A stretch of 64,000 nt of DNA from Thermoanaerobaculia bacterium (GTDB lineage: Bacteria > Acidobacteriota > Thermoanaerobaculia > UBA5066 > Gp7-AA6). The translations under genes and the position numbers were made by a program. This document shows positions 3,848-40,643 of this stretch, in pieces. The DNA is taken from contig DATJPZ010000078.1 in the NCBI GenBank assembly GCA_035506175.1, positions 12,283 to 76,282 of the forward strand, read 5' to 3'. The notes under the pieces were generated by a model that was given only the letters and a program-made list of their open reading frames with translations, was not told the DNA's origin and searched no databases. Each line of letters opens with the position of its first letter. The stretch's first letter is position 1.

Positions 3848-3959
3848 GGCGTCACGCCCGCGAAGCCGTTGAGCCTCCTATCCTTCGTCGAGGCCTTCCG
3901 GTGGCCCCGTCCTTGCGAAGAAGTCGGGTCATCGGGAGCCCTGTCTCGATCAGGAGGCC

Positions 3960-5822
3960 ATGATGATCCGGACCATGCGACGCACCGTCCTCTTCGGGTT
4001 CGCGGCCCTGGCCGCCGCCTTCGCGGCGACCGCGGCGACGATCCCGAGCCGAAGCCCCTACCACCCCGCGGCCGCGCCCTCGACCGCGGCGCGCCTCGCG
4101 GCTCCCGGCCAGGAGGGCCTCGACTTCGACGCCACCCTCCTTCCGGCGCTTCGCGACCACGCGACGCGCGTCCTCGAAATGGACGGATTCCCCGTCGCGC
4201 CGGGCGCGACCGGAAAGGTCCGCCTCCATCGGTTCGAAATCGCGACCCCGGGCGCTCAGATGACGATCGAGGGACCCGACGGCGTGACCTCCCGTCCTCT
4301 GCCGGAGATCTCGCATTTCGCCGGCGTCGTCGAAGGCGAGCCCGACTCCTCGGTCTACCTCGCGGCCACGAAGGACGGCGTGGTCGCCTGGGTCCACTCC
4401 CGGCTCGGCCACGCTTACGTTGGTCCGGACGAGTCCGGCCGGTCCTTCGTCGTCCGCGACGGGGACTCCCCGCTGAACGCGGCCGCGAGCACGCAGCCGT
4501 GGGTCTGCCAGGCCGAGAACCTGCCCGCGGCGTTGTCCACGCCGGCGCCGTCGAGCATTCCGGCCCCGCAGCTGCCCGACGTCACGTTCAAGCAGGCGTC
4601 CGTCCGTGTCGAGACCGACTACCAGCTCTACCAGCACTTCGGCGGCGACGCCGACGCGATGTCGACCTACGTGATGACTCTCTTCGGCGCGGTCAACGTG
4701 ATCTACACGCGCGATCTCTCCCTCTATCTCGCCGTCTCGGAGATCCACGTCTGGAGCACGCCGGATCCGTACACGGGCGGTGACACGCTCACGCAGCTCT
4801 ACCAGCTCGGCACCTGGTGGCACGCCAACAAGCCGATCGCCTCGAACCCTCGGACTTACGTCCACTACCTCAGCGGTCACCCGGTCGCGGGCGGCATCGC
4901 GTGGGTCGACGTGCTCTGCTCCGGCGACTTCCAGGCCACCGCCACGCAGTGGGGCGGCGGCTACGGCCTGACTCAGGTCTTCGGCACATATCCGCTCCAG
5001 CTCTGGGACCAGGACGCCTCCGCACACGAGATGGGACACAACGTCGGCTCCGTGCACACGCACTGCTACGCGCCGCCGATCGACCACTGCTACAGCGGAG
5101 AGCAGGGCTGCTACTCCGGCCCGGTCGAGAACCCGGGTCTCGGCAACGGCACGATCATGAGCTACTGCCATCTCCTCGGCTGGCAGTACATGTCGCTCGT
5201 CTTTCACCCCCGCTGCATCTCCGAGCAGATGATGCCCGGCATCAACGGCGCTTCGTGCCTGACCACGCCCGGCATCTTCGCGGACGTCCTGCCCTCGGAC
5301 CCGTTCCTCTCCTACATCGACACCGTCTACAACGACGGCATCACGGGCGGCTGCGGCACCGATCCCCTCATCTACTGCCCGACCTCTCCCGTCACGCGGG
5401 CCCAGATGGCCGTGTTTCTCCTGAAGGCGATTCACGGCTCGTCCTACGCGCCGCCGGCCTGCGCCGGACTCTTCACCGACGTGCCGTGCTCGAACGGGTT
5501 CGCCCCGTGGATCGAGGAGCTCGCCGCGGAGGGCGTCACGGCCGGGTGCGGCACCGGCACCTACTGCCCGAACGACCCCGTGACGCGCCAGCAGATGGCG
5601 GCCTTCCTCCTGAAGGCCGAGCACGGCTCGTCCTACACGCCGCCGGCCTGCGCGGCCAACCCCTTCGCGGACGTCGCGTGCCCCGGTACTTTCACGAACT
5701 GGATCCAGCAGCTCGTCGCCGAGGCCGTCACGGGCGGCTGCGGCGGCGGCGACTACTGCCCCACGAGCCCGGTCACGCGGGGCCAGATGGCCGTGTTTCT
5801 CGTCAAGACGTTCGGGCTGTAA
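3960..5822 (+). CDS. Secreted metzincin-type zinc metalloprotease (reprolysin-like) with three C-terminal Cys-rich SLH-like repeats
   Basis: ORF track, 620 aa. aggagg RBS directly upstream. Signal peptide MMIRTMRRTVLFGFAALAAAFAATAA. HEMGHNVGSVH (HExxHxxGxxH) followed by GTIMSYC (Met-turn-like). The C-terminal triple repeat is homologous to that of 271..3039. Confidence 0.85.
   Translation: MMIRTMRRTVLFGFAALAAAFAATAATIPSRSPYHPAAAPSTAARLAAPGQEGLDFDATLLPALRDHATRVLEMDGFPVAPGATGKVRLHRFEIATPGAQMTIEGPDGVTSRPLPEISHFAGVVEGEPDSSVYLAATKDGVVAWVHSRLGHAYVGPDESGRSFVVRDGDSPLNAAASTQPWVCQAENLPAALSTPAPSSIPAPQLPDVTFKQASVRVETDYQLYQHFGGDADAMSTYVMTLFGAVNVIYTRDLSLYLAVSEIHVWSTPDPYTGGDTLTQLYQLGTWWHANKPIASNPRTYVHYLSGHPVAGGIAWVDVLCSGDFQATATQWGGGYGLTQVFGTYPLQLWDQDASAHEMGHNVGSVHTHCYAPPIDHCYSGEQGCYSGPVENPGLGNGTIMSYCHLLGWQYMSLVFHPRCISEQMMPGINGASCLTTPGIFADVLPSDPFLSYIDTVYNDGITGGCGTDPLIYCPTSPVTRAQMAVFLLKAIHGSSYAPPACAGLFTDVPCSNGFAPWIEELAAEGVTAGCGTGTYCPNDPVTRQQMAAFLLKAEHGSSYTPPACAANPFADVACPGTFTNWIQQLVAEAVTGGCGGGDYCPTSPVTRGQMAVFLVKTFGL
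5277..5819 (+). other. Protein-level module: three tandem Cys-rich SLH-like repeats (C-terminus of 3960..5822)
   Basis: FADVLPSDPFLSYIDTVYNDGITGGCGTDPLIYCPTSPVTRAQMAVFLLK / LFTDVPCSNGFAPWIEELAAEGVTAGCGTGTYCPNDPVTRQQMAAFLLK / PFADVACPGTFTNWIQQLVAEAVTGGCGGGDYCPTSPVTRGQMAVFLVK. Confidence 0.7.
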
Positions 5823-8101: not shown

Positions 8102-9562
8102 TTAGTGCAGATACCCGAGCGCCCGGAGCTCCTTGACCACGTCGCTCTGCTCGCCGAGGCCGTAGTGGCCCATGACCTGCTTCATCCACGTCTCGTAGGT
8201 CGGGGCGTGGTCCGGCCCCGGCGCGAGCCAGCCCGACGGGCCGCCGAGGTGTTTCATCAGCGTGTGGTAGAGCGTGCGGACGCGGTCCGGGTCATTCCCG
8301 GCGAGGTTTGATGTCTCGCCCGGGTCCTTCGCGAGATCGTAGAGCATCCGTTCCTGCGGCGTGACGAGGATGAACTTGCGGTCGCCCTCGACCACGCTCC
8401 CGATCCAGAACGTCCAGGCGCCCTCGCTGTAAGCGGGGCGTGGCGGTTCGGACGCGGCTTCGGGAAGGCCGAGCACCGCCGGCGCGAGGCTCCGGCCGCT
8501 CCAGGCCCGCGGGCGCTCGACGCCGACGAGATCGAGCAGTGTCGGCGCCACGTCGAGGTTCTGCACGAGTTGGGACTCGGCTCGCCCGGGCCTGCCGAGG
8601 CCAGGCGCGGCGATCACGAGCGGCGTGCGGACGACGCCGTCGAAGTAGGTCTGTCCGTGGCTGATCACGCCGTGCTCGTCGAACTCCTCGCCGTGATCGG
8701 CGTTGAAGACCACGATCGTCCTCTGCGCCAGCCCCGTCCGGTCGAGGTACGCGAAGAGCGGCTCGAGATCCTGGTCGGCCCAGTACAGCCCCTCGTCGTA
8801 CATCGCCATCGCGTTGGCGACGTCGTCCGGCGTCGGGTGGAGCGAGCCCGCGCGGACGCGCTCGATCGCGTCCAGCGTGAACTCGAAGGAGCTCGCGAAT
8901 TTTCCGAAGCGGTTCGTCCGCTCGTGGGCGTGGAGGAACGGGTAGTGCGTGTCGGTCGCGTAGAGGAACACGAAGAAACGGCCGCTCCGGTTCTTCTCGA
9001 TCCAGTCGAGGACGTGCGGCATCTTCTGGGACAGCGACTCCTGCGCGTGGCGGAAGAGGTCCCAGCCCTGGTCGAACCCGAAGGGCCCGGAGATCCAGCT
9101 CTGCACGAAGGCGGCGGTCTTGTAGCCGGCGCCGCGCAGCGCCTCCGAGACGAGTTCGTCCTGCGGCGAGGGTCCCGGCGCGATGCCGAGGATCTTCGAG
9201 GCGTCCTTCTCGTCGCGCTGCTCGTGGACGGCGAGCTCGGCCACGTAGCGCGAGGTCAACATCGACGCGTAAGACGGCAGGGTGTACGGCGCCTGCGCGA
9301 CGGAGCGCGGGAAGCGGACGCCGCGCGCGGCCAGCGCATCGAGGTGAGGCGTCGTCTTTCGCGCGTAGCCGTCGAAGGAGCAGTGGTCGGCGCGCACGGA
9401 GTCGAACGAGATCCAGATCACGTTCATGCCGCGACAGGCGTCGGCGGGATCCCTGCGGCACGCGGCCGACAGGAGACCCGCGAGCCCGAGGGCGGCGGCC
9501 GCGGCCGCGCGGGCGAGGCGGCGCGCGGCGGGAGCAGCTGCGGTTTTCGGTCTCGCGGGCAT
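8102..9562 (-). CDS. Sulfatase-fold (alkaline-phosphatase superfamily) lipoprotein with Thr at the nucleophile position
   Basis: Last 486 codons of the 8102..13435 ORF, starting at ATG 9562. MPARPKTAAAPAARRLARAAAAAALGLAGLLSAAC is lipobox-like. NVIWISFDSVRADH is the metal site. QAPYTLPSYASMLTSRY stands where sulfatases have C/S-x-P-x-R. ADHGEEFDEHG lies near the C-terminal half. Confidence 0.85.
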   Translation of the reverse strand: MPARPKTAAAPAARRLARAAAAAALGLAGLLSAACRRDPADACRGMNVIWISFDSVRADHCSFDGYARKTTPHLDALAARGVRFPRSVAQAPYTLPSYASMLTSRYVAELAVHEQRDEKDASKILGIAPGPSPQDELVSEALRGAGYKTAAFVQSWISGPFGFDQGWDLFRHAQESLSQKMPHVLDWIEKNRSGRFFVFLYATDTHYPFLHAHERTNRFGKFASSFEFTLDAIERVRAGSLHPTPDDVANAMAMYDEGLYWADQDLEPLFAYLDRTGLAQRTIVVFNADHGEEFDEHGVISHGQTYFDGVVRTPLVIAAPGLGRPGRAESQLVQNLDVAPTLLDLVGVERPRAWSGRSLAPAVLGLPEAASEPPRPAYSEGAWTFWIGSVVEGDRKFILVTPQERMLYDLAKDPGETSNLAGNDPDRVRTLYHTLMKHLGGPSGWLAPGPDHAPTYETWMKQVMGHYGLGEQSDVVKELRALGYLH

Positions 9563-9637
9563 CGCGTCCGAAGCATACCCGCGGGCCGCGGCGGCGCGGG
9601 TTGTCCCCCGGCCGCCCCTCTGAGAGACTGGCCGGCG

Positions 9638-12600
9638 ATGGAGCGCGCGGTTTTCGTCACCGGCTACTACGGTTTCGGCAACACCGGCGACGAGGCGATC
9701 CTCTCCGCGCTCGCCGCGGGCCTGCGCGCTCGCGACGCCTCGATCCGCATCCTCGCGACCTCGGGAGATCCGGGCCTGACTCGCCAGAAGCACGGGGTCG
9801 AAGCGGTCCCCTGGCGCGACCCGCTGTCGCTCGCGGAGGCGGTCAAGCGCGTCGACCTCGTCGTCATCGGCGGCGGCGGTCTCTTCCAGGACTACGGCGG
9901 CCTCGAGCCCGGGACGCTGCTGACCCCGAAGCACGGCGGCGTCACGTTCTACGCCGGGCCGGCCGTGCTCGCCGCCGCCGCCCGCAAGCCCGTCGCTCTC
10001 CATGCCCTCGGGCTCGGCCCGCTCGCCTCGCCGGAGGCGCGCCGCATCGTGCGCGCCGTCGCGGCCGACGCGGTTCGCGTCTCGCTGCGCGACGCCGGCT
10101 CGCGCGCGCTCCTCCGGGAGATCGGGGCCCCCGCCGAGAACGCCGCCGTCACGGCCGATCCCGCGTTCCTGCTCTCCTCCGGGCACGTCCGGCCCGAGGA
10201 CGTCCTGATCGGCATGGGCCTGGAGCCGCGGTCGCCGATCGTGGGCGTCGCGTTGCGGCCGTGGGCGCGCGGCGCGGACCCGGCGCGGTGGGAGGCCGCG
10301 GTCGCCGCGGCCCTCGACCGGATCGTCGAGCGCACCGGCGGCACCCTGCTCTTCGTTCCCTTCGAGCGCAGTCCGTGGTCCGACGACGACGACTTCGCCG
10401 TGGCCACCCGCGTGCGCCGCCGCCTCGCGCACGGCGACCGCGCCGCGATCCTCTCGGGGCTCCTCGCGCCGCAGGACACGGCGTCGCTTCTCGGCGGCTG
10501 CGACCTGGTTCTCGCGATGCGCTTCCACGCCGCCGTCTTCGCGCTCGCCGCGGCGGTACCGCCCGTGGCCCTCGCGTACGACCCCAAGGTGGACGCCCTT
10601 CTGGCCGGCACCGGTTTCGCCGATCTCGTCCTGCCGCTCTCCGGTCTCGATGCCGGCGACCTCGCGGCGCGGCTCGAGCGGGCTTACGCCGACCGCGAGC
10701 GGCTCTCGAAGAAAATCGCGGGCGCCGCCGCCGAGCAGCGCCGTCTTGCCGCCGGGGATCTCGACGCGCTCGCGGCGCTCGCCGCCGACCCGCCGGAGGC
10801 GCCGCCGGTTTCGCCCGAGATGCTGGCGCTTCTCGACGAAGGGCTTGCCGCGAACCTCCAGCGCACGCACGAGCTGTCGGCCGAAGTCGACATGCTCCGC
10901 GCGGACAAGATCGCGCAGGATCTGCGCGTCGGCGACCTCGAGGCGCGGTTGGCAGCGGCCGAAGGCGCCGAGGCTCCCCTGCGCGCGAGCCACGATGCCC
11001 TGCTGACCCGCTTCGAGGAAGCGGTCCAGGCGCACCGCCGCGAAATCGAGCTCCTCGAAGGTCAGCGCGTCGAAGCCCGCGAGGAGCTCTATCGCATCCA
11101 GACGTCGCGGCTGTGGCGCACCGTGAACCTCTACTGGCGGGCGCGGCGCGCGGCCGCGCGGCTGACCCGGCCGGCGAGGCGCCGCATCCAGGGCGTTCTC
11201 GGATCGCCGCCGGCCGACTGGGTCGGACCGGACACGGCGCGTGCCGAAGCCGCGGCGGCGCGGCGGCCGGAGGCCGACAACCGCTGCGAGATCGTTTTGC
11301 TCCCCTTCTCCGCCGGGACGGCCGAGGAGGCCCGGCGGCTGGCGGCCGCGGGTCATCGCGTGTTCGCGGTCGACCCGAGCCTGCGGGCGAGCGGCCCGCC
11401 CTACGCGGCGCTCGAGGGCCCCCCGCGGCTGTTCACCGTGACTCTCCGCGCGCCCGATCCGGCGTCGGCCGAGACGTTCGACGCCCTCGACCGCCTGCGC
11501 CGGGAGCTCTCCCTGTGCGCGACGCTCGCCGTCGCCGACGATCCGGCGTGGAGGCCCGTCGCGGCGCGCCTGGCCACCGAGCGCGGGTGGGCCCTTACCG
11601 AGACGCTCGGCGACGAGGCCGCGATCGCCCGCGCGTTCCCGAAGCTTTCGGTCGTCGTCGTCACGTGGAACGGCCTCGACTTCAACCGGCTCTGCCTCGA
11701 CAGCCTCTCGGCGCGTACCGAGTGGCCGAACCTCGAGATCGTGGTCGTCGACAACGCCTCGACCGACGGTACACGGGAGCTCCTCCAGGAGTGCATCCGG
11801 AAGGATCCCCGGATCCGGGCGATCCTCCTGCCCGAGAACCGCGGCTTCGCGGCCGCCTGCAACGAGGGCCTGGCCGCCTCGACGGGCGACTTTCTCGTGA
11901 TCTTGAACAACGACACGGTGGTCACGCGCGGCTGGGCCTCGGCGCTGTGCCGGCACCTCGCGGCCGACCCGAAGCTCGGCCTCGTGGGACCCGTCACCAA
12001 CGCCATCGCCAACGCGGCGAAGGTCGAGGCCGGCTACGCGTCGGTCGACGCCCTCGGCGCGTGGGCCGCGGAATGGGCGCGTGCCCACGACCGCGAGGCC
12101 TTCGACATCCCGGTGCTCGCCCTCTTCTGCACCGCGCTGCCCCGCCGCGTCTGGGAGGAGATCGGGCCGCTCGACGAACGCTTCGGGATCGGCCTCTTCG
12201 AGGACGACGACTACAGCCGGCGCGTGCGCGCGAAAGGCTACGCCGTTCGCTGCGCGCGGGATGCCTTCGTCCATCACTGGCAGATGGCCTCGTTCCGGAA
12301 GCTGTCGCGCGAGGCCTACTTCGCGCTCTACGCCGAGAACAAGCGCCGCTTCGAAGAGAAGTGGAGCGCCGCGCCGGCGGCGACCGCCGCGCGGCCGAGC
12401 GCGGCTCCCCCGGCGCGCCGCTTCGCGACGCTCGACGAGCACCGCGCCCAGCTCTCGCACGTGCGCGAGCGCGCCGCCGGCAGCAAGGGGGTGGTCGTCT
12501 TCCTGCCGTCGGTCGGCTGGGGGATCCACCTCTTCCAGCGTCCGCACCACCTGGCCCGCGTCTTCGCGCGCCTGGGCCATGTCGCCATCTTCGACAGCAG

Positions 12601-13510
12601 CAACGCCGCCGACCGCGTCGACGGGTTTCGCGAGATCGAACCGAACCTCTTTCTCTTCAGCGGCTCTCCGGAGCTGCTGCACGAGATCCCGTCGCCGCTC
12701 CTGTGGACCTTCCCCTACAACTTCCACCTCGCCGACGGGTACCCGAAGCCGTCGCGGACCGTCTACGACTGGATCGACGACCTGTCCGTTTTTCCCCAGG
12801 AGCGCGCTCTCCTCGAGCGCAACCACGCGCGGGCCCTCGTCGAGGCGACGCTCGTCGCGAGCGTGGCGCGCCGCCTTCACGAGCAGGCCCGCGCCGTCCG
12901 CAAGGACGCGCTGTACCTGCCCAACGGCGTCGAATACGAACGCTTCGCCGCGCCCGCCGCGCCGCCGCGCGACGAGAAGCTGCTGTCGTTCCTGACGCCG
13001 GGTGCGCCGGTCGCCGGGTACTACGGGGCGCTCGCCGAGTGGTTCGATTACCCGCTCGTGGACGCCGTCGCCGCCGCCAAACCCGACTGGCGCTTCGTCC
13101 TCATCGGCCCGCAGTACGACAAGAGCCTGCCGGGTCAGCCGATGCTCGAACGGAAGAACGTCCTCTGGCTCGGCCCGCGCGACTACGTCACGCTGCCCGG
13201 GTACCTCGCGCTCTTCGACGTCGCGACCATTCCGTTCCGCATCAACGCGATCACGCAGGCGACCTCGCCCTTGAAGCTTTACGAGTACTTCGCCGGCGCG
13301 CGGCCGGTCGTCACGACGCCGATGTCCGAGTGCCAGGCGCACCCCGAGGTCCGGATCGCCGCGACGGCCGGCGAGTTCGCAGCGGCCCTCGACGAGGCGC
13401 GGGCGCAGGGCCGCGATCCGGACTTCCGCGCGCACCTGCGCTCGGTTGCGCGGGAAAACTCGTGGTCGGCGCGGGTGATGACGGTGCTGCGCGCCCTCGA
13501 CGGCCGCTAG
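9638..13510 (+). CDS. 1290-aa fusion enzyme: CsaB-like polysaccharide pyruvyltransferase + coiled coil + family-2 glycosyltransferase + family-1 (TuaH-like) glycosyltransferase
   Basis: In-frame ATG at 9638 inside ORF 8570..13510. MERAVFVTGYYGFGNTGDEAILSAL...VVIGGGGLFQDYGG is pyruvyltransferase-like (about 9638..10750). Heptad-rich segment about 10760..11130. LSVVVVTWNGLDF...VVVDNASTDGT...ILLPENRGFAAACNEG...LFEDDDYSRR is GT2-like (about 11640..12300). YYGALAEWFDYPL...ATSPLKLYEYFAGARPVVTTP is GT1-like (about 12480..13500). Confidence 0.85.
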   Translation: MERAVFVTGYYGFGNTGDEAILSALAAGLRARDASIRILATSGDPGLTRQKHGVEAVPWRDPLSLAEAVKRVDLVVIGGGGLFQDYGGLEPGTLLTPKHGGVTFYAGPAVLAAAARKPVALHALGLGPLASPEARRIVRAVAADAVRVSLRDAGSRALLREIGAPAENAAVTADPAFLLSSGHVRPEDVLIGMGLEPRSPIVGVALRPWARGADPARWEAAVAAALDRIVERTGGTLLFVPFERSPWSDDDDFAVATRVRRRLAHGDRAAILSGLLAPQDTASLLGGCDLVLAMRFHAAVFALAAAVPPVALAYDPKVDALLAGTGFADLVLPLSGLDAGDLAARLERAYADRERLSKKIAGAAAEQRRLAAGDLDALAALAADPPEAPPVSPEMLALLDEGLAANLQRTHELSAEVDMLRADKIAQDLRVGDLEARLAAAEGAEAPLRASHDALLTRFEEAVQAHRREIELLEGQRVEAREELYRIQTSRLWRTVNLYWRARRAAARLTRPARRRIQGVLGSPPADWVGPDTARAEAAAARRPEADNRCEIVLLPFSAGTAEEARRLAAAGHRVFAVDPSLRASGPPYAALEGPPRLFTVTLRAPDPASAETFDALDRLRRELSLCATLAVADDPAWRPVAARLATERGWALTETLGDEAAIARAFPKLSVVVVTWNGLDFNRLCLDSLSARTEWPNLEIVVVDNASTDGTRELLQECIRKDPRIRAILLPENRGFAAACNEGLAASTGDFLVILNNDTVVTRGWASALCRHLAADPKLGLVGPVTNAIANAAKVEAGYASVDALGAWAAEWARAHDREAFDIPVLALFCTALPRRVWEEIGPLDERFGIGLFEDDDYSRRVRAKGYAVRCARDAFVHHWQMASFRKLSREAYFALYAENKRRFEEKWSAAPAATAARPSAAPPARRFATLDEHRAQLSHVRERAAGSKGVVVFLPSVGWGIHLFQRPHHLARVFARLGHVAIFDSSNAADRVDGFREIEPNLFLFSGSPELLHEIPSPLLWTFPYNFHLADGYPKPSRTVYDWIDDLSVFPQERALLERNHARALVEATLVASVARRLHEQARAVRKDALYLPNGVEYERFAAPAAPPRDEKLLSFLTPGAPVAGYYGALAEWFDYPLVDAVAAAKPDWRFVLIGPQYDKSLPGQPMLERKNVLWLGPRDYVTLPGYLALFDVATIPFRINAITQATSPLKLYEYFAGARPVVTTPMSECQAHPEVRIAATAGEFAAALDEARAQGRDPDFRAHLRSVARENSWSARVMTVLRALDGR

Positions 13511-13516
13511 CGGGTC

Positions 13517-15136
13517 TCAGCGCGCCGGCGAAATCTCGACGAGCCGAATCGCCGGTGCGCCCGACCGGTCGCGAAAGACCGTTTCGCGCGCGGCCGCGGC
13601 CGGCGCCTGCGCCAGCGCGTCGCGGAAGGCGCGCACGGACGCCGACGGCGGCTGGTTGTCCCACTCGAGAAACGCGCCGCCCTCGCCGATTTCGTCGCCC
13701 CAGGTTCGGCCTCGCGCCGAGCGCTCGGCCGTCGCTCCCCAGAAGAGCTCCGTCCCGTGAATCCGGCCGCCCGAGACGACGTAGAACGGGTTCTGAAAGC
13801 CCCAGTCGAGGAGCTTCAATTTCGCCGGCGGAATTGACCGCTCTTCGAGCGCGCGCGCGGCGTCGAAGGAAGCGCTCGACCAGAATCCCCGCCCGCCGGT
13901 CTCTCGCAGGCCTCGGTCGATGCGCGCGTCCCACGAAAGCCACACGGCGGCGAGCGCGGCGCCGGCCCCGGCCGCCAGAGCGCGCGCGGCCGGGGATCGC
14001 GGCCACGCCTCGGCGGCGAGAATCGAGAGGGCCGCGAGGCCCGGAGGAAGGACCGCCGCCATGTGATGCTGCCCGACCGGCAGCCGGGAGAAAGCCAGGA
14101 TCCCGGAAAGGAGAAGCGCCGTCCACGCGAGCGCCCGGCGCACCGACACGAGGCGCGCGTCGCCGCCGCGCCCCGGGAGGAACGCCCCGGCGCACGCGGC
14201 CGCAAGAAGCGCTCCGCCGAGCGCGACCTCCCACGCGCGCGTGCCCGGCCCGCCCCAGATCGGGCGGAGCTGCCTCGAGGAGATCATCAGCTCGGCCAGC
14301 AGCGACAGGCGCGCGCGGGCCCCGACCGACGCCGCCGGGAGCCGGCCGAGCGTCTCCATCACCGTCAGCGTCCCGCCGTGCGAGGCCGCCTCGTAGACCA
14401 GCAGCGGCAGGGCGCCGAGGAGACCACCCGCGGCCGCGGCGGCAAGCTCTCGCGCCGCCGGCCGCGCGCGCCGGCCGTAGACGATCGCGGCGGCCAACGC
14501 CGCCGCCGCGAGGAGCCAGACGAAGTTCACCCGCGCCCAGACGCCGAGACCCGCGGCGACCCCCAGGAGAGACGCGGACCGCGGGGACCGCCGCCGAAGG
14601 AATCGGGCGAGGGCGAACGCGAGGAGGCCCATCGCGGCCATCCAGACCGACGTTCCGCCATGGTCGAAAACGGTCAGGTCGAGATACCCGGGCTGAATCG
14701 CCAGGGCAAGGCCGGTGACGAGAGCGGCCGCGGGGCTCGCTTCCTCTGCCAGGAGCCGAACGAATCCCGCGATCCCGAGCGCGCCGAGAAGCGCGCCGCT
14801 CGACCGGGCAACCGCGGCGCCCGTCCCGAGGGCGGCAAAGAGCGGCAACGCGACCCACGCCTTGAACGCTCCGACGTAAGGGAAAACCATGATCGGCCAG
14901 CGGCGCCCGCCGGCGGCGAGAAAAAAGGCCGGGTCGTGCGCAAACGGCGGGTCGCCGCGTCCATCCGCGAGAACGTAGACGGCCGACTCGACGTAGAGCG
15001 CCTCGTCCATCTGGTAGCCGATACCCGCCGAGATCCGGCGCGCGGCGAACAGGCCGTAGACCACGAGCGGCAGAACGACGACGGCGGCCCCGCGGGGGCC
15101 GCGCGCACGCGGTCCGGTCTTCCCGGACGCCTTCAC
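13517..15136 (-). CDS. Polytopic GT-C-type membrane glycosyltransferase-like protein (ArnT/PMT family-like) with C-terminal soluble domain
   Basis: In-frame GTG at 15136, 11 nt downstream of the stop of the preceding gene (15147). Many hydrophobic helices. GIGYQMDEALYVES in the first loop resembles the DE motif of PMT/ArnT-type enzymes. The ORF-track start at 15337 is rejected because it overlaps the upstream gene. Confidence 0.75.
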   Translation of the reverse strand: MKASGKTGPRARGPRGAAVVVLPLVVYGLFAARRISAGIGYQMDEALYVESAVYVLADGRGDPPFAHDPAFFLAAGGRRWPIMVFPYVGAFKAWVALPLFAALGTGAAVARSSGALLGALGIAGFVRLLAEEASPAAALVTGLALAIQPGYLDLTVFDHGGTSVWMAAMGLLAFALARFLRRRSPRSASLLGVAAGLGVWARVNFVWLLAAAALAAAIVYGRRARPAARELAAAAAGGLLGALPLLVYEAASHGGTLTVMETLGRLPAASVGARARLSLLAELMISSRQLRPIWGGPGTRAWEVALGGALLAAACAGAFLPGRGGDARLVSVRRALAWTALLLSGILAFSRLPVGQHHMAAVLPPGLAALSILAAEAWPRSPAARALAAGAGAALAAVWLSWDARIDRGLRETGGRGFWSSASFDAARALEERSIPPAKLKLLDWGFQNPFYVVSGGRIHGTELFWGATAERSARGRTWGDEIGEGGAFLEWDNQPPSASVRAFRDALAQAPAAAARETVFRDRSGAPAIRLVEISPAR

Positions 15137-15146: not shown

Positions 15147-16619
15147 CTAGCGAACCGGCTGCGGCGCGGGCGCGGCGGAGCTCTCGCCAGGGGCGCTTTC
15201 GAGCCGCGCGATCCGCGCCGAAAGCGCGTCGAGACCCTCGTCGGCCGGGAAAACGAGGTCGCGGCCCTCGCCCTCCAGCTGCGCGAGCTCACGCCGCTGT
15301 CTCTGCCACTCGTTGACCAGCATCGCGGGCAGCTCATGGTAGAGCACGGCCTCCGGCTGCCCTCCGTCGTCCGCGACGACGAGATCCGGAAGAACTTCCT
15401 GCACCTCTTCGGCGATCAGGCCGTACTGCGTGCGATCGTCCGCCGGCGTCTTGTAGTGAAAGGTCACCGGGCGGAGGTTGAAGATCCCCCGGCTCGCCTC
15501 GCCCATGTCCGAGACGTCCTCCTTGAAGCGAGCCGACGAGGCGATCGTGCCGACGTGCGACGTGGAATCGACGTAAACGGGCACCGCTCCCGGCCCGCTC
15601 GGAACGACGCCGAAGACCCCCGCCAGAAAGAACTTCGTGTGGAGACCGGGGTCGCCGATCCTCATGACGCCCGACTCGCTCGCGGCGCCGACGCTTCCCA
15701 GGTAGACGTTGTTGTCGCCGGCCGTCAGGTTGAATCCGGCCTGGGCGCCGAGTGCCGTGTTGTTGGACCCCGTCGACGAAAGCAGCGCCTGGTACCCGAC
15801 GGCCGTGTTCCCGGAGCCGCCGACGTTGCCCGCGAGCGCCTGCGCGCCGACGGCGACGTTGTTCGACCCGGTCGAATTGGACGCCAGGGCGCCGGCGCCG
15901 AGGGCGCTGTTGTTGTTGCCCGTCGTGTTGTTCCGCAGGGCCGACACGCCGAGCGCGGTGTTGTCGGAACCCGCGGTGTTGTTCAACATCGCGTAAGACC
16001 CGATCGCGGTGTTGACGGTTCCGGAGGTGTTCTGCTGAAACGCGCCGTAGCCGATCCCCGTGTTGTCGACCCCCGTCATCGCCGCGTTCCCGGCGGACAC
16101 GCCGAGGAACGTGTCGCTGACGTCGACGGCCGACGGTCCGAAGTACCCGTTCGTGTCGATGATGAAGTCGGTCGCCGAAACCGCCGCGGCCACCGTGATC
16201 TGCCCGGACTGGCCGAGCGGCACGATCGCCGCATTCGCGACCGTCAGACCCGACACGAAGTTGAGCGTCGACACGCCGGGTTGCGGCTGACCGGTCGGAT
16301 ACAGGAGCACGTACCCGAGACCGGTCGCGTTGACGACAGTCACGTTCAACGACACGGCCTGGGCTCCCGCCGGGATGCCGCAGCGCCCGGTCATCGTGAA
16401 CGCGCGCGGCACGCCGGCGCCGAGCGACGGCGGTCCGTAACCGGGCGGCTGATTCGAATCGCGCGTGTCGGCCACACGGCACGGCGTGATCCCGATGAAA
16501 GGCATCGGCGAGGTGACGAGGGTGGGAGCCTCGGGCAACGCGTCCTCCGCGACGAGCGGCCCGGCGAACGCCGCGCACGCGATCACCACCACCAGGAGAA
16601 GGCGCGCTCGCGTCGTCAT
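15147..16619 (-). CDS. Secreted tail-fibre-like protein, third of three tandem paralogues: signal peptide, PCRxxDTR N-domain, Asn/Thr/Gly/Ala-rich YadA-head-like repeats, peptidase S74-like intramolecular chaperone, coiled coil
   Basis: ATG at 16619 inside ORF 15147..17951, with an ATGA overlap to the upstream paralogue. MTTRARLLLVVVIACAAFAGPLVA is the signal peptide. PMPFIGITPCRVADTRD...IDTNGYFG. Repeats NTAIGSYAM/NTALGVSAL/NSALGAGAL. SSARFKEDVSDMG...LRPVTFHYK...YGLIAEEVQEVLPDLVV. Confidence 0.88.
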   Translation of the reverse strand: MTTRARLLLVVVIACAAFAGPLVAEDALPEAPTLVTSPMPFIGITPCRVADTRDSNQPPGYGPPSLGAGVPRAFTMTGRCGIPAGAQAVSLNVTVVNATGLGYVLLYPTGQPQPGVSTLNFVSGLTVANAAIVPLGQSGQITVAAAVSATDFIIDTNGYFGPSAVDVSDTFLGVSAGNAAMTGVDNTGIGYGAFQQNTSGTVNTAIGSYAMLNNTAGSDNTALGVSALRNNTTGNNNSALGAGALASNSTGSNNVAVGAQALAGNVGGSGNTAVGYQALLSSTGSNNTALGAQAGFNLTAGDNNVYLGSVGAASESGVMRIGDPGLHTKFFLAGVFGVVPSGPGAVPVYVDSTSHVGTIASSARFKEDVSDMGEASRGIFNLRPVTFHYKTPADDRTQYGLIAEEVQEVLPDLVVADDGGQPEAVLYHELPAMLVNEWQRQRRELAQLEGEGRDLVFPADEGLDALSARIARLESAPGESSAAPAPQPVR

Positions 16620-18079
16620 GGGAGCCTCCCGTCGCGCGACTGCTCGAGCGCTCCGATCCGGCCTTCGAGCTCCCGAATCTGCGCTTCCCGCGTGTCGAGC
16701 GATCGTTCCCGACTCTCGAGCGATTCGCGTCGTTCGGCGAGCCGAGCCTGGTCGTCGGCCAGACGCCGTTTCTGCTTCTGGAGCTCGTTGAGCAACAGCG
16801 CCGGGATCTCGTCGTAGCGAACGGTCAGCGCCTCTCCCGACCCGTCGCACACGACGAGGTCCGGCAGGGCGCGCTCGACCTCCTCGGCGATCAATCCGTA
16901 GGAGGTCCGCCCGGGCTGGTCCTTGTAGTGAAAGGCGACCGGCCGCAGCCTTTGGAGCGGGCCGCTCGCATCGGCCATGTCGAAGATCGCCTCTTTGCTG
17001 CGCGCCGACGACGTCGCGACCCCGAGCTGCCCCGTGACGTCGATCTGGACGAGAAGCCCCCCGCCGAGGGTCACTCCCCGGACGCCGGCCACGAAGGTCT
17101 TCGTCTGAATGCCGCCGGCGCCGAGACGAATGACCCCGCTGTCGTCGGAGACGCCGTCGTTGGCCACGTACAGGGCCGAGCCGCCCGTCGTCAGCGAGGA
17201 ACCGGCGCCTTGCCCGAGGGCGGCGTTGTTGTTCGAGAAGCCGGAGGCTCCCTGGAGCGCGTTCTTTCCGACGGCGGTGCTGTTGGTCCCGGCCGAGGAC
17301 ACGAGGGCGCCGACGCCGATCGCCGTGTTCATTTCCCCCGACGCGTTCACCGCCAGCGCATCGACGCCGAAAGCTTCGCTGACCGCGCCGTCTTGAAGGA
17401 GGGCAAGGGTCTCGACGCCGACGGCGACGTTCGACTGGCCGGACGTCGCGTTCAGGAGGGCGTTCTCGCCGGCGGCCGTGTTGGAGTTGGCGGTCGTGTC
17501 GCTCGCGAGGGCGTGAAACCCCACTGCGGTGAGCGCGGCCGCGGTCGTCGACGCGTTGCCGGCGCCGGTCCCGAGAAAGACGTTGCCGGCGTCCCCCGCG
17601 CTGCCGCCGAAGTACCCGTTGGTGTCGATGAGGAAGTCGGTGCCCGAAACCGCCGCCGCTACCGTGATGCCGCCGCCGGCGCCGAGCGGCACGACGGCCG
17701 CGTTGGCGACCGTCTGGCCCTGAACGTAGTTGACCGTCGACACGCCGGGCTGAGAGCCGCCCTGCGGGTAGAGCAGCACGTACCCCAGTCCCTGCGGGCT
17801 GACGACCGTCACGTTCAGCGACACAGCCGCCGCCCCGGCAGGGATCCCGCACCGACCCGCGATCGTGAAGCTGCGCGGAACGCCGGCCGCCAGCGACGGC
17901 GGCCCGTAACCGGGAGGCCTCGTCGCATCGCGCGTGTCCACGATCCGGCACGGCGTGATCCCGAGGAACGGCATCGGGACGGTCACGAGGGCCGGCGCCG
18001 CCGGCAGCTCTTCGCCGGCCGCGGAAGCCGCGGCCACGCCCAATCCGAACGCCAGCACGGCCGGAAGGCGGTGGTTCAT
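16616..18079 (-). CDS. Secreted tail-fibre-like protein, second of three tandem paralogues (same architecture)
   Basis: ATG at 18079 inside ORF 16616..19819, with ATGA overlaps at both ends. MNHRLPAVLAFGLGVAAASAAG is the signal peptide. PMPFLGITPCRIVDTRD. SSARSKEAIFDMAD...LRPVAFHYK...YGLIAEEVERALPDLVV. C-terminal heptad-rich tail. Confidence 0.88.
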   Translation of the reverse strand: MNHRLPAVLAFGLGVAAASAAGEELPAAPALVTVPMPFLGITPCRIVDTRDATRPPGYGPPSLAAGVPRSFTIAGRCGIPAGAAAVSLNVTVVSPQGLGYVLLYPQGGSQPGVSTVNYVQGQTVANAAVVPLGAGGGITVAAAVSGTDFLIDTNGYFGGSAGDAGNVFLGTGAGNASTTAAALTAVGFHALASDTTANSNTAAGENALLNATSGQSNVAVGVETLALLQDGAVSEAFGVDALAVNASGEMNTAIGVGALVSSAGTNSTAVGKNALQGASGFSNNNAALGQGAGSSLTTGGSALYVANDGVSDDSGVIRLGAGGIQTKTFVAGVRGVTLGGGLLVQIDVTGQLGVATSSARSKEAIFDMADASGPLQRLRPVAFHYKDQPGRTSYGLIAEEVERALPDLVVCDGSGEALTVRYDEIPALLLNELQKQKRRLADDQARLAERRESLESRERSLDTREAQIRELEGRIGALEQSRDGRLP

Positions 18080-19539
18080 CGTCCCCCTCCTTCTTCGAGC
18101 GCCGAGAGCCTGGCCCGGAGGGCCTCGATCCGCCGGCGATCGTTCCGCTCCCGCGCCGCCGCGCGCTCGGTCCGCGCCTCGAGCGCCGAGGATTCCGCCT
18201 TCTGCGCTTCGATCTGCGCCTGCTGCTTCTGGATTTCCTGGAGGAGCAGAACCGGGAGCTCGTCGTAGCGGACCGACACCGGAGCTCCGTCCGCGCCGCG
18301 GACCACGAGATCGGGCAGCACTGCCTCGACCTCCTCGGCGATCAGGCCGTAGCGGAGCTGCCCCTCCGCCGGCGCGCGATATCGAAAGGTGACGGGCCGG
18401 AGCGACAGGACGGAATTCGAGGCCGCGTCGAGGTCGCGGACGTCCTCCTTGAATCGCCGGGAAGAAACCAGCGTTCCGAACTGGCCGGTCGGGTCGACGA
18501 ACACCGGCAGGGCGTCGGCGAGAAGCGTGGCGCCGTAGATGCCGGCGATCCACGTCTGCGAAACGCCGGACGCCTCTCCGATCCGGATCGTCGCCGATTC
18601 GGTCGCGGGAGAGGAGATGGCGCCGATGTACACGTTGTTCGAGCCCGTCGCGAGATCCTGGCCCGCCGCCCAGGGAAACGCCGCGTTGTTGTTGCCCGAC
18701 GTCAATCCCTCCAGCGCGCCCTGACCGATCGCGGTGTTGTAGGAACCGGCGGCGACGTTGGCGAGACTGAAATAACCGGCGCCGGTGTTGTTCGATCCGG
18801 TCCCGTTGGCTTGCAGCGTGACGCCGAGGGCCGTGTTGCCGCTGCCGGTCGTGTTGGCGGAGAGCGCCTGCCTCCCGGCCGCGGTGTTTTCCGAGCCCGT
18901 CGTGTTGCTCATGAGCGCTTCCCATCCGAGCGCGGTGTTGCTCGAGCCGGTCGTGTTGGACCGAAGGGCCTCGACGCCCACGCCGGTGTTGTCGTCCTCC
19001 ACCGTCGTCGCGTTTCCGGCGTCGAGGTAGGCGCTCAAATAGCTCGTCGGGGAGGCGCCGTAGTAGCCGTTGACGTCGATGAGGAAGTCGGTACCGGAAA
19101 CCGCCGCCGCCACCGTGACGCCGCCGCCCGTCCCCAGCGGGACGATCGCCGCGTTGGCGACCGTCAGCCCCTGCACGTAGTTCAGCGTCGACACGCCGGG
19201 CTGGGAGCCGCCCTGCGGATAGAGCAGCACGTACCCCAGCCCCTGCGGGCTCACCACCGTGACGTTGAGCGACACCGCCTGTGCTCCCGTCGGAATCCCG
19301 CATTGCCCCGCCAGCGTGAAGCTGCGGGGAACCCCGGCCGCCAGCGAGGGCGGCCCGTAGCCGGGAGGCCTCGTCGCGTCCCGCGTGTCCACGATCCGGC
19401 ACGGCGTGATCCCGATGAACGGCATCGGGGACGTCACCAGCGCCGGAGCCGTGGGAAGGGCTTCGTCCGCTCTCGCGCCGCCCATGGCGACCGAAAGACC
19501 GGCGAGGAACGCGAGGCCGAAGCGAACGAAACGCGCCAT
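18076..19539 (-). CDS. Secreted tail-fibre-like protein, first of three tandem paralogues (same architecture)
   Basis: ORF track, 487 aa. aaggggggg RBS upstream of ATG 19539. MARFVRFGLAFLAGLSVAMGGARA is the signal peptide. PMPFIGITPCRIVDTRD. SSRRFKEDVRDLD...LRPVTFRYR...YGLIAEEVEAVLPDLVV. C-terminal coiled coil. Confidence 0.9.
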   Translation of the reverse strand: MARFVRFGLAFLAGLSVAMGGARADEALPTAPALVTSPMPFIGITPCRIVDTRDATRPPGYGPPSLAAGVPRSFTLAGQCGIPTGAQAVSLNVTVVSPQGLGYVLLYPQGGSQPGVSTLNYVQGLTVANAAIVPLGTGGGVTVAAAVSGTDFLIDVNGYYGASPTSYLSAYLDAGNATTVEDDNTGVGVEALRSNTTGSSNTALGWEALMSNTTGSENTAAGRQALSANTTGSGNTALGVTLQANGTGSNNTGAGYFSLANVAAGSYNTAIGQGALEGLTSGNNNAAFPWAAGQDLATGSNNVYIGAISSPATESATIRIGEASGVSQTWIAGIYGATLLADALPVFVDPTGQFGTLVSSRRFKEDVRDLDAASNSVLSLRPVTFRYRAPAEGQLRYGLIAEEVEAVLPDLVVRGADGAPVSVRYDELPVLLLQEIQKQQAQIEAQKAESSALEARTERAAARERNDRRRIEALRARLSALEEGGGR

Positions 19540-19637: not shown

Positions 19638-21410
19638 CTACGGCAAGTCGCGGTGGCGGGGCAGGGCCGGAGCAGCCGCGTCCGACCGGACGAACCCGAA
19701 ACCGAAGCGCGATCCGGCGGAGCCCTCGAGCACGACTTCGAGCGGCGCGCCGGCGGCGGCCAGCGGACACCTCGCCCAGCCGCCGCCGGGAAGGGGGAAT
19801 CGCTCCGGCCGCTCGACACCGCCGGCCCGGACCGTCACTTCGAGGCCCGCCCGGTCCTCGAGGTCGAGTCCGAGCTCGACACCCGGTTGACTTTGCGGCA
19901 GCCGGCACCGGACCCGCGCGGCGGCGCTCCCGGAGTCGGGCGCGGCGACGGCCCGGTCCCCCGAAAACGCGGCGAACCGTCCCGCCTCGGCCTCGCACGC
20001 GACGAGCCCCTTGCCTCCAGCCACCGTGAGCGGCACCCGCAGGACCCGGGGCGGCGCCTCGTCCTTCCGTACGGCGAGGCGCCCGAGCGCCGGGGCCGCG
20101 CCCAGCAGACCCGCGGCCAGGACCGCGCCGAGCACGAGATACCGCCGCCGCGCGCCACGCTCTCCCGGCGCCGCGAGAGCCGCGGCAAAGAGGGAAAGCG
20201 CCAGCAGCGCGAGCGCGATGGCGGGCACCATGAGGCGCCCGAGCGGCGAGAACACGACCTGCACGAGCGTCCTGAGCAGGACGGCCGCCGCGACGACGAG
20301 AATCGCTCGATCGCGGCGGGCAAGCGCCCACGCCGTCGCGGCGAGGAAGAATCCGCTGACGAGCGCCATCTCGAGCCTCAAGAGCGGCGCGGCGGCCGAC
20401 GTCAGCGCGGCGGCGGCGGACGCGCGGAAGGCCGGCAGCGCTCCCGGCGCGCCGAGGCTCCAGAAAAGATTCTGCGCTTCGCTGTCGACCGCCATTCTCG
20501 CGGCGGAGGCCCCCGCGCGAAACGCGTGATAGCGCCAGCGGCGCCGGGCCTCCTCGGCCGCCAGACGCCACGCCGCGCGCCGCAGGGCGAGCGGATCCGT
20601 CGAAAGTCCCGGCTCGACCGCCACCGCGAAAAGCGTCGGATCGACCCAGCCGGCTGCCGCCGATCCCGGAGCCAGCGTCCCGAGCACGCTCAGGCCGCCG
20701 TGATCGGTCGTCAACGCGAAGCGGCCCGTCGCCGCACGGCGCTCGAGGGCGAGCGCCAGAAGCGGGATCGCGGCGGCCACGGCCGTCTCGAGCAGGCGCC
20801 GGGCGCGGCTCTCGCGGCGGCCCGGAAGGCCCGCCGCCGCCAATGCCGGCGGCAGCAGAACGACCAGCATTTCCTGGCGGATCGCCACCGCGGCGGCAAA
20901 GAGAACGCCGGCGAGAACGGGGTGACCCGGATCCGACGAATCGCGCAGCCGCCTGACTGCCAGGCACGCGAGAGCGACCGTCGGCGGCAGGACCCAGTTT
21001 TCCTGCGCGACGACCCCGGAAAAGAAGACCTGCCCTGGCCACAGCGCGAGCAGGGCGCCGGCAAAGAGGCGCGCGCGCAAGCCCAGGATCGGCCTCCAGA
21101 TCAGGAACGGCAACAGCGCCGTCAGCCCCGTGACGACGGCCGTCGCCTCGCGCGCCGCCGCGGCCACGCCGTGCGGAAAGAGCCGGAAGAGCGCCGACAG
21201 CAGCAGGGGCAAGCCCGCGTTGAACTGGACCCAGTGCCACCCCGGCACCGCGAGGCCCTCGTCGCGCAGGCGCAGGCCGAACACGACGAGGCCGCGAAAA
21301 TCGGACACCGGTTCGGTCGGGAAGGCCCCGACGAAACCGAGGCGAAGGCCGACGCCGGCGAGAACGAGGGCAGCCGCACCGATCGCCTCCCGCCCGGCAC
21401 GTGGAGTCAA
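19638..21410 (-). CDS. Polytopic GT-C-type membrane glycosyltransferase-like protein with C-terminal soluble domain
   Basis: ORF track, 590 aa. About 11-13 hydrophobic helices over the first ~400 aa, then a ~170-aa soluble tail. General resemblance to the family 39/83/87 membrane glycosyltransferases. The family assignment is tentative. Confidence 0.7.
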   Translation of the reverse strand: MTPRAGREAIGAAALVLAGVGLRLGFVGAFPTEPVSDFRGLVVFGLRLRDEGLAVPGWHWVQFNAGLPLLLSALFRLFPHGVAAAAREATAVVTGLTALLPFLIWRPILGLRARLFAGALLALWPGQVFFSGVVAQENWVLPPTVALACLAVRRLRDSSDPGHPVLAGVLFAAAVAIRQEMLVVLLPPALAAAGLPGRRESRARRLLETAVAAAIPLLALALERRAATGRFALTTDHGGLSVLGTLAPGSAAAGWVDPTLFAVAVEPGLSTDPLALRRAAWRLAAEEARRRWRYHAFRAGASAARMAVDSEAQNLFWSLGAPGALPAFRASAAAALTSAAAPLLRLEMALVSGFFLAATAWALARRDRAILVVAAAVLLRTLVQVVFSPLGRLMVPAIALALLALSLFAAALAAPGERGARRRYLVLGAVLAAGLLGAAPALGRLAVRKDEAPPRVLRVPLTVAGGKGLVACEAEAGRFAAFSGDRAVAAPDSGSAAARVRCRLPQSQPGVELGLDLEDRAGLEVTVRAGGVERPERFPLPGGGWARCPLAAAGAPLEVVLEGSAGSRFGFGFVRSDAAAPALPRHRDLP

Positions 21411-21462: not shown

Positions 21463-21819
21463 TCAGCGGGTCGCGGGCGGCGGAGCCGTCGGCGTCACGG
21501 TCGCCGTGGCGACCGAGGCCGGCTCGACGCGGATCGAGGTCGCCACCTTCTTGCCGTCGCGCTCGAGGTACCGGACCGCGACGCGGTCGCCGGCTTTGAG
21601 CGCTTCGCCGTTGATCTTCGTGGCGGCGGTCCGCACGAGCGTCGTCGTCTTGCCCGCGCTGCTGCGCACGACGAGCGTCTTCGCGGCGTCGTCCACGCGA
21701 TCGACCGTCCCCGAGAGCGAGAACCCGTGCGTCTTGGTCTTCTCGGGCGTGGCGGCGCTCCCGGCGGCCGAGGCGGCCAGGACGGCGAACGCGAGCGCGG
21801 CGGTGCGGAGGCCCCTCAT
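21463..21819 (-). CDS. Small secreted protein (OB/beta-barrel-like, unknown function)
   Basis: ORF track, 118 aa. MRGLRTAALAFAVLAASAAGSAA is the signal peptide. GTVDRVDDAAKTLVVRSS...GDRVAVRYLERDGKKVATSIRV. Confidence 0.7.
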   Translation of the reverse strand: MRGLRTAALAFAVLAASAAGSAATPEKTKTHGFSLSGTVDRVDDAAKTLVVRSSAGKTTTLVRTAATKINGEALKAGDRVAVRYLERDGKKVATSIRVEPASVATATVTPTAPPPATR

Positions 21820-25927: not shown

Positions 25928-28283
<2,356 letters not shown>

Positions 28284-28286
28284 CGT

Positions 28287-29870
<1,584 letters not shown>

Positions 29871-29872
29871 GT

Positions 29873-30421
29873 TCAGGCTCCCGTCCTCTCCTTCACCTGG
29901 CTCTGAAACCGCCGGAGGGCGGCGGCCACCGTCGCGTCGAACACGCGGGACCCTGCCCGGGCGATGAAGCCCCCGAGCAGCGTGGGATCGATCTCGACCT
30001 GGGACCGCACGGTCTTGCCCGTGCGCGCGGCGATCGCGGCCTCGACCGACTGACGCTCGGCATCCGAGAGCGCCGCCGGCACGGTCAGCTGCACGCGCAG
30101 CACGTTCTGCTTCGCGTCGTAGAGATCGCGCAGCGTCTTGAACACCTCGGCCGCCTCGAGGAGGCGATGGTTCTTGAGCATCACCTGCAGGAAGCGCGCG
30201 CCGTATTCGTCGAGGCCAGCCTTCGCCGAGAGCGCCGCGATCGTCTTGCTCTTGGCGTCGCGCGGCACGTTCGGCGCGAGCAGGAACGCGCGCAGCGGCG
30301 GGTTTGCCGCGAACGTGTCCGCCATCGTCTGGCCGGCCTTCAGGAACGCGCCCACGTCGTAGCCCGACGGCGCGGCCTCGAGAAAAGCCCGGGCGTACGG
30401 GTGCGCGAACGATCCGCTCAT
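29873..30421 (-). CDS. atpH: F1 ATP synthase delta (OSCP) subunit
   Basis: In-frame ATG at 30421 (ATGA overlap with the atpF stop). [17 protein letters not shown]...[22 protein letters not shown]. Confidence 0.9.
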
Positions 30422-30966
30422 CGGGCGTCCTTCAGCCGTTCGACGCCGTCGGCGAGGAGGCGCTCGCGGTCGGCGGGCGTGATCTCCCGGGACAGGATCT
30501 GGCCCGCCGCGTGGGTGGTCAGCTCGGCGGCCTGCTCTCGCAGTTGCGCCCGCGCCGCCGCGAACCGGCGCTCGACTTCCTCGACGGCCTGCTCGCGGAT
30601 GCGCTCGGCCTCGGCCAGCGCACGCTCCCCGAGCGCCCGACGCGCCTCTTCGCCGTCGGCCCTGCCCTGCTTGCGGATCTCTTCGATCTCGCGCTCGATC
30701 TTCGACGCCCGTTCCCGGATGTCCGCGGCGAGCCGGTCGACGGACTCGCGCCGCTTCTCGGCCTCGAGACGCCGCCGCTCGATGTCTTCCTGGCGCTGGC
30801 GAAACGAGGCCGCGAGCGGCTTGGCGATGAAGTAAAGCAGAACTCCGAGGAAGAGCCCGAGGTTGAGGAGCTGCCAGACCCAGATCGGCAGTCCCCAGAG
30901 CTTCGCGGCCTCCTCTGCCTCCTCGGAAAGCAGAAGCCACACCGTCGAGGCGGCCGGCAGCGTCAC
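30418..30966 (-). CDS. atpF: Fo ATP synthase b subunit
   Basis: 182 aa. One N-terminal TM helix ([24 protein letters not shown]) followed by a long charged helix. Confidence 0.85.
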
Positions 30967-31397: not shown

Positions 31398-31504
31398 TGA
31401 AGACTTTCTTCGGGCGACGAAACCGCGGATCAATAGCACAGACGGGAGCGCCGAGTCGAGGATCGCTGAAGGGCGCGTGAAGCCCGAACGGCGCCAACCG
31501 TTAA

Positions 31505-36106: not shown

Positions 36107-36116
36107 GGCGCCGCGC

Positions 36117-37478: not shown

Positions 37479-37553
37479 CGGGCGAGCCGAAAGCCTTTGC
37501 GAAAACCGCCAGCGCGGCGGTGGAGGCTGCCGGCGGACGGCTCGCGGCGACGG

Positions 37554-38258: not shown

Positions 38259-38276
38259 CGGCGATTTTTCTCGACC

Positions 38277-40512: not shown

Positions 40513-40643
40513 ACCGTGAGTTTCTTACGCCCCTTGCGGCGGCGAGCCGACAGAACAGCCCGGCCCGACCGCGTCCGCATCCGGACGAGGAAGCCGTGCG
40601 TGCGCTTGCGGCGCCGGTTGTTGGGCTGATAGGTGCGCTTCAT
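40509..40643 (-). CDS. rpmH: 50S ribosomal protein L34
   Basis: Not in the ORF track (44 aa). Hand translation: [44 protein letters not shown]. Confidence 0.97.

Follow-up and report, generated by a model that had tools for sequence, protein, structure and literature searches.

Tandem chromosomal genes for probable exported fibre proteins with a phage-type S74 chaperone domain in an Acidobacteriota bacterium

Three tandem genes (A, B and C) in a 64,000-nucleotide stretch of chromosome from a soil-type Acidobacteriota bacterium (Thermoanaerobaculia, contig DATJPZ010000078.1; the whole stretch is called the window below) encode paralogous proteins that end in a Peptidase_S74 domain. The S74 chaperone is generally presented as a phage tool for use in the host cytoplasm. 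We propose that A, B and C are probably chromosomally encoded, Sec-exported fibre proteins, each most likely a homotrimer, in which a cellular N-terminal domain is joined to a phage-type fibre module with a self-cleaving S74 domain. They add no surprise in one respect: experiments on Bdellovibrio had already shown, in 2024, an S74 chaperone at work on cellular proteins that are exported. The family supplies thousands of chromosomal, probably exported S74 examples from Acidobacteriota, a dominant and poorly studied soil phylum, and extends the Bdellovibrio result to organisms without a known predatory lifestyle.

The C-terminal S74 domain and its predicted catalytic pair

The Pfam Peptidase_S74 model (PF13884) matches all three proteins, at residues 361-414 of A (49.5 bits), 357-409 of B (34.0 bits) and 359-412 of C (50.9 bits). 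The gathering score of this model is 22 bits, and the matches span profile positions 1-57 of 58. The domain sits at the C-terminus, preceded by a repeat fibre and followed by a helical region. A preliminary description of the window, read from the letters without database searches, had placed an S74 domain at this end of all three paralogues, and the profile search bears it out.

The first Ser of the motif SS[AR]R[FS]K coincides with position 1 of the PF13884 profile. It is accompanied by a Lys five residues downstream in each protein (S361/K366 in A, S357/K362 in B and S359/K364 in C), the spacing to which the preliminary description had drawn attention. S361, K366, R383-P384-V385, G400, A403 and E404 (A numbering) are invariant in an alignment of 46 homologues. 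Furthermore, S-x4-K followed by LRPV is retained in 117 of the 120 best homologues, and PF13884 is found in all 120 homologues listed. A Ser/Lys pair that is invariant in the smaller set and near-universal in the larger one is hard to account for without catalysis.

Other details of the preliminary description need adjustment. The spacer between KE and LRPV, given as 15-20 residues, is 14 residues in A, B and C. The motif downstream is as described except that EEVExx does not hold for A, which has EEVQEV. Cleavage is predicted to release a C-terminal fragment of 129-131 aa and 14.3-14.8 kDa, not one of about 13 kDa. The interval 15150-18465 covers A, B and the S74 part of C, but gene C extends to 19539.

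The coiled coil expected after the domain has a counterpart in the AlphaFold2 (AF2) model of A, where a 49-residue helix (residues 427-475) lies C-terminal to the S74 core. All AF2 models used here are monomer predictions. This C-terminal helix varies among the paralogues, which share 32-45% identity in it, and A has a 13-residue gap. The family profile aligns, through the trailing helix, with the solved S74 domains of a T5-type L-shaped fibre (8hqz), the long tail fibre of phage S16 (6f45) and mouse MYRF (7dc3). These structures were reached only by family profiles; a search of the Protein Data Bank (PDB) with a single sequence returned nothing.

The S74 domain could instead stay on the fibre, serving permanently as a trimerisation module or coiled coil at the C-terminus, or its cleavage could await a late trigger. 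Consistent with this, the trailing helix is long and paralogue-divergent and could have a role of its own, and cleavage of the Bdellovibrio fibre protein Bd3182 (see below) appears to be delayed to 120-180 min into predation. The conservation of Ser and Lys across the 46 and the 120 homologues speaks for cleavage, as does the fact that all S74 domains tested to date cleave (PMC10769870; PMC4690869). We therefore regard a retained S74 domain as quite unlikely.

The family is large. Gene C has matches at E<=1e-5 in at least 6,425 clusters (90% identity), most of them from Acidobacteriota. Homologues are named 'tail fiber domain-containing protein' (NCBI; Thermoanaerobaculia), 'Chaperone of endosialidase' or 'endosialidase-like protein' in databases, so the S74 assignment is already part of public annotation. 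An NCBIfam search assigned no family to A, B or C.

Leaders and predicted export

Signal peptides were judged by sequence heuristics that consider the n-region, the hydrophobic core, an AxA-type site and a twin-arginine motif. The N-termini of A, B and C each combine a basic n-region with a strongly hydrophobic core and an AxA-type site (AFA before G, ASA before A and ARA before D, respectively), in keeping with the signal peptides that the preliminary description had ascribed to all three. By the same heuristics, 110 of 120 homologues have a Sec-like N-terminus, and most of the remainder are truncated. On these features A, B and C would be exported, with a putative final location in the periplasm, on the cell surface or in the medium.

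Two other fates were rejected. Twin-arginine (Tat) export, which would permit folding in the cytoplasm, does not fit leaders that have no twin-arginine in A, B or C, and just four of the 120 relatives are loosely Tat-like. The sequence VIAC (residues 12-15) could suggest that A is a lipoprotein, but the Cys is missing there in B, C and most homologues. The A orthologue in the closest related genome has a twin-arginine in its leader (MTRRQLMAAT...), unlike A here.

A stalk and chaperone of viral character

The stalk of A is built of 17-aa repeats and has a self-identity of 0.38 at lag 17. Together with the S74 domain it matches tail fibre and spike families in PHROG. Phage records with a match number 335, the SPO1 tailspike among them, and identity is about 33%. 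Predicted structures in BFVD add matches to S74 proteins of giant viruses and tailed phages. A tblastn search of 50,697 phage genomes with the N-terminal domain, by contrast, returned no match. Since the stalk and S74 domain are viral in character and the N-terminal domain is absent from phage genomes, A, B and C appear to be chimeric, with an exported domain of cellular type fused to a fibre module of phage type.

This viral affinity invites the reading that the genes belong to, or are remnants of, a prophage, tailocin or contractile injection system, and that their hydrophobic N-termini are not signal peptides. S74 fibres do occur on extracellular contractile injection systems (PMC12923769) as well as on virions, and it is as 'tail fiber' proteins that NCBI lists relatives of the trio. 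We consider such an origin extremely improbable. No phage, tailocin or injection-system gene was found in the window or in the related loci, and in the latter the neighbours are housekeeping genes. The leader-like N-terminus recurs in the great majority of the homologues noted above, and the N-terminal domain, which phage genomes lack, is found elsewhere on multidomain proteins that include glycoside hydrolases.

The N-terminal beta-sandwich domain

The N-terminal domain (N-domain) of A is predicted to be a 134-aa eight-strand beta-sandwich, with a predicted local distance difference test score (pLDDT) of 87.9 and a predicted template modelling score (pTM) of 0.81. Its motifs are PCRxxDTR, NxT, STLN, ANAA and DxNGYF. 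The three paralogues share 77-88% identity in this domain, 41-45% in the stalk and 32-56% in the S74 region.

Cys47 and Cys80 (A numbering) are invariant in the alignment of 46 homologues. Of 480 copies of the domain from distant proteins, 458 have both Cys and 14 have neither. This co-variation is the pattern a disulfide gives, and it fits an oxidising compartment outside the cytoplasm.

At E<=1e-3 the N-domain family numbers 36,025 cluster representatives, of which 10,704 remain at E<=1e-30. Among the 150 best-scoring proteins, 144 have exactly three tandem copies, four have four and two have six, in a ranking by summed score that favours multi-copy proteins and under-represents single-copy members. 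Many short proteins with a single copy also exist. The copies are joined to GH44, GH113, Vgb-lyase/PKD, FG-GAP or PPC modules, usually on secreted enzymes. The domain also occurs at three of the related loci (L010, L011 and L012).

A Foldseek search of the PDB with the N-domain gave as best match the tip region of Bd2133 (8OND), a Bdellovibrio fibre protein of the MAT group described below, at E 3e-4 and a query-normalised TM-score of 0.49. The next matches are generic jelly-rolls, namely carbohydrate-binding modules, TNF/C1q-like heads and viral coat proteins.

The preference for three copies suggests a three-lobed unit, as does the presumed fibre trimer, in which each chain would contribute one copy. 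We put forward, tentatively, the possibility that the N-domain is an undescribed disulfide-bonded beta-sandwich that works only as such a unit, with an envelope glycan or another surface polymer as its ligand, supplied as three tandem copies in secreted enzymes and as one per chain in the fibres. If so, stalk and anchor alike would owe their assembly to S74-driven trimerisation outside the cytoplasm, and the Acidobacteriota family would represent a general surface-display system parallel to the triple SLH domain, more than a copy of the Bdellovibrio predation fibres. As a very large family without a database model, the N-domain merits a description of its own and is the most promising thread to follow.

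Organisation of the gene trio

Each of the genes has a Shine-Dalgarno-like sequence 5' of its start codon and a strong periodicity in third-codon-position G+C (GC3) in its own frame; this signal marks A, B and C as real coding regions. Adjacent genes of the C-B-A series are joined by ATGA stop/start overlaps. In the closest genome, an Acidobacteriota metagenome-assembled genome, the related locus L001 (10001-14470) keeps the C-B-A trio and its ATGA overlaps, with 67-71% identity per orthologue. Because order and overlaps are kept at this distance, the trio appears to be an old, maintained and translationally coupled unit.

Such an arrangement could mean that A, B and C form a single 1:1:1 heterotrimeric fibre, and the nearly equal chain lengths and Ser positions (361/357/359) would suit that. 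However, related loci L002 and L003 have a single family gene, and a 16.8-kb contig carries paralogues of very unequal length (644, 530, 503 and 506 aa), so one chain type suffices. The stalks of A, B and C are furthermore offset by small indels, the helix of A is 13 residues shorter, and known S74 fibres are all homotrimers. A heterotrimer is thus very unlikely, and we retain three separate homotrimers as the probable arrangement.

Proposed assembly

The chain would cross the inner membrane unfolded through Sec, and signal peptidase I would remove the leader. The 134-aa N-terminal beta-sandwich may then fold and form its disulfide (C47-C80 in A). The S74 domain would gather three chains and, starting at the C-terminus, act as a template on which the 17-aa-repeat stalk folds. 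As it works without ATP, it can act outside the cytoplasm. In a correctly formed trimer, the Ser/Lys pair is predicted to cut just before Ser361 (A), Ser357 (B) or Ser359 (C). This would free a fragment of 14-15 kDa and leave an acidic mature chain of about 33 kDa, or about 100 kDa as a trimer. The conserved N-domains may hold the fibre on an envelope component, with the divergent stalk ends providing three different binding tips.

Several observations weigh against this proposal. The stalk and the stalk/S74 junction are of low confidence (pLDDT 45-70) in the monomer model. The second motif position is Ser in all three proteins, versus Asp in the SDxxxK consensus. The 13 related loci share no common partner gene: neither the flanking glycosyltransferases nor any anchor or secretion-system gene recurs, and no outer-membrane route was found in them. 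The N-domain could also be a substrate-binding module instead of an anchor, since the same domain is found on glycoside hydrolases; its putative anchoring role is drawn by analogy.

If folding and cleavage do happen outside the cytoplasm, A, B and C, at about 490 aa, would be compact test cases for ATP-independent periplasmic trimer assembly. The proteins could also serve as surface-display scaffolds.

Comparison with known systems

The closest known counterparts are mosaic adhesive trimer (MAT) fibres of Bdellovibrio bacteriovorus, which encodes 21 of them, and in particular their S74 subgroup (Caulton et al. 2024, Nat Microbiol, PMC10769870). In this subgroup a signal peptide is followed by a beta-rich N-domain, the fibre and an S74 domain with SDxxxK. 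Its member Bd3182, which has this layout, self-cleaves at S782, and the S782A mutation blocks cleavage (PMC10769870). Family members were localised to the predator surface, and the authors propose that the invariant MAT N-terminal domain holds the fibre on the cell and that the tips vary (PMC10769870). MAT-like proteins from several other phyla are tabulated in the supplement to PMC10769870, in a table from which Acidobacteriota are absent. Our search of the literature for other exported bacterial S74 proteins found only this paper.

The Acidobacteriota trio and the MAT fibres are both cellular and chromosomal, and share the order of signal peptide, beta-rich N-domain, fibre and C-terminal S74 domain. 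Several paralogues are present in both, with a conserved N-terminal end and a varied distal part. The novelty that the preliminary description implied for S74 on exported proteins is accordingly lost to MAT fibres of the same layout and to self-cleaving Bd3182. Conversely, the shared architecture and the cleavage of Bd3182 make folding after export plausible for A, B and C, and we infer, soundly in our view, that they would trimerise and cleave after export.

The two groups also differ. A, B and C are half or less of the approximately 1,000 aa of MAT proteins, and have SSxRxK where MAT has SDxxxK. A link to predation is known for Bdellovibrio and none is known for the Acidobacteriota proteins. 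The MAT domain of about 130 aa and the 134-aa beta-sandwich here occupy the same place after the leader and are comparable in make-up, and any homology between them is putative. On secreted enzymes the N-domain of the trio is also found in three tandem copies, an arrangement not reported for MAT. MAT chains in the PDB, which are C-terminal parts only, gave no match to the S74 profile.

With phage chaperones (K1F endosialidase, the T5 pb1 L-shaped fibre, the Salmonella phage S16 long tail fibre and the Bacillus phage SPO1 tailspike gp2.52), the trio shares the Pfam family, the Ser/Lys spacing, the C-terminal place, the helix and the repeat fibre. Phage S74 proteins lack a signal peptide; their folding takes place in the host cytoplasm, and phage-specific N-termini fix them to the virion, whereas A, B and C begin with an exported cellular domain absent from phage genomes and are encoded outside any phage cluster. 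MYRF is another non-viral use of the domain, and the family profile aligns with MYRF ICA (7dc3), including the helix, at E 1.2e-5. MYRF, however, is a eukaryotic membrane-bound transcription factor without a fibre function, and its cleavage frees a DNA-binding part.

Trimeric autotransporter adhesins (type Vc, YadA-like) resemble A, B and C in being exported, adhesin-like and trimeric, the first and last presumed for the trio, and in having head-type repeats rich in Asn, Thr, Ala and Gly. One homologue is named 'trimeric autotransporter adhesin' by JGI, and the structural matches of the stalk and S74 domain include a phage protein described as having a 'YadA-like head domain'. Type Vc proteins end in a C-terminal beta-barrel anchor; A, B and C end in the S74 domain and helix instead. 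No Pfam match to YadA, Hep_Hag or a beta-barrel translocator was found in them at E<=1.

Genomic context

The trio is flanked on both sides by genes for membrane glycosyltransferases of the GT-C fold (Table 1). These enzymes may, as an addition to the assembly proposed above, glycosylate the three fibres outside the cytoplasm. Both PMT_2-like genes are on the strand of the trio, close to C and A. No terminator-like site was seen on that strand, in a promoter and terminator scan that is uninformative at 70% G+C. The stalks are rich in Ser, Thr and Asn, and N-x-S/T sequons number 10, 5 and 7 in A, B and C versus 4.2, 2.8 and 3.6 expected from composition, or about twice expectation. That excess, however, follows from the NT-rich repeat itself, and one of the two PMT_2 matches is below the Pfam cut-off. 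Moreover, none of the 13 related loci shows this adjacency, not even the one with the closest orthologous trio: the downstream enzyme has no homologue in loci L001-L013, and the upstream one is likewise not kept in relatives. Glycosylation of the fibres by these neighbours is therefore unlikely.

Table 1. Features of the fibre genes, their products and the surrounding window (aa, amino acids; nt, nucleotides; ORF, open reading frame)
Feature	Position	Strand	Remarks
Gene A	15147-16619	minus	490 aa; ORF, start codon, GC3 frame signal, PF13884
Gene B	16616-18079	minus	487 aa; architecture as in A; ATG overlaps stop codon of C (ATGA)
Gene C	18076-19539	minus	487 aa; architecture as in A; leads the trio
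Protein A, domains			signal peptide, residues 1-19/24; N-terminal beta-sandwich, 32-165; 17-aa-repeat stalk, 166-355; S74 and helix, 356-490
A Ser361...Lys366 codons (SSARFK)	15522-15539	minus	predicted catalytic pair; predicted cleavage just before Ser361; codons checked
B Ser357...Lys362 codons (SSARSK)	16994-17011	minus	
C Ser359...Lys364 codons (SSRRFK)	18448-18465	minus	
A stalk	15555-16124	minus	about 8 repeats of 17 aa, NTAxGxxALxxNTxGxx; phage-fibre-like
N-domain of A	16125-16526	minus	no Pfam model
N-domain of B	17579-18001	minus	no Pfam model
N-domain of C	19030-19452	minus	no Pfam model
Downstream neighbour of A (11 nt)	13517-15136	minus	membrane glycosyltransferase, GT-C fold, weak PMT_2; PF13231 24.7 bits, below the 26.1 cut-off
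Upstream neighbour of C (98 nt)	19638-21410	minus	membrane glycosyltransferase, GT-C fold, PMT_2; PF13231 32.7 bits
DUF5666 protein	21463-21819	minus	118 aa; signal-like N-terminus; just upstream of the glycosyltransferase/fibre cluster
Polysaccharide pyruvyl transferase (CsaB-like), GT2 and GT1 fusion	9638-13510	plus	1,290 aa
Two SLH-domain proteins	271-3039, 3873-5822	plus	one with TIG, one with a Reprolysin-like metalloprotease
ATP synthase (F1Fo) operon	25928-31523		
mnmG, jag (R3H), yidC	within 34235-49807	minus	
dnaA, then dnaN, gyrB, gyrA	40818-42191 (dnaA); 40.8-49.8 kb	plus	

The window spans the neighbourhood of oriC and is core chromosome. The trio lies about 21 kb from dnaA, and the cumulative GC skew has its minimum near 44-52 kb. 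Other neighbours of the trio encode a sulfatase and an amidohydrolase. Across the 13 related loci, none of the sulfatase, the pyruvyl-transferase fusion and the SLH-domain proteins is a conserved neighbour of the family.

Long ORFs in other frames or strands (for example 8102-13435 and 9601-14718) were rejected as genes and are by-products of the roughly 70% G+C content. Overlapping ORFs of 1,777, 1,705, 1,646 and 515 aa at 8102-14858 likewise lie in non-coding frames or strands and are artefacts of 70-75% G+C; the genes of this region are only those frames with high third-position G+C.

The CsaB-like fusion and the SLH proteins together look like an SLH/pyruvylated-glycan surface-anchoring system in this Acidobacteriota genome. 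A homologue of the SLH/TIG protein (L001 7899-9737) lies directly upstream of the orthologous fibre trio in L001.

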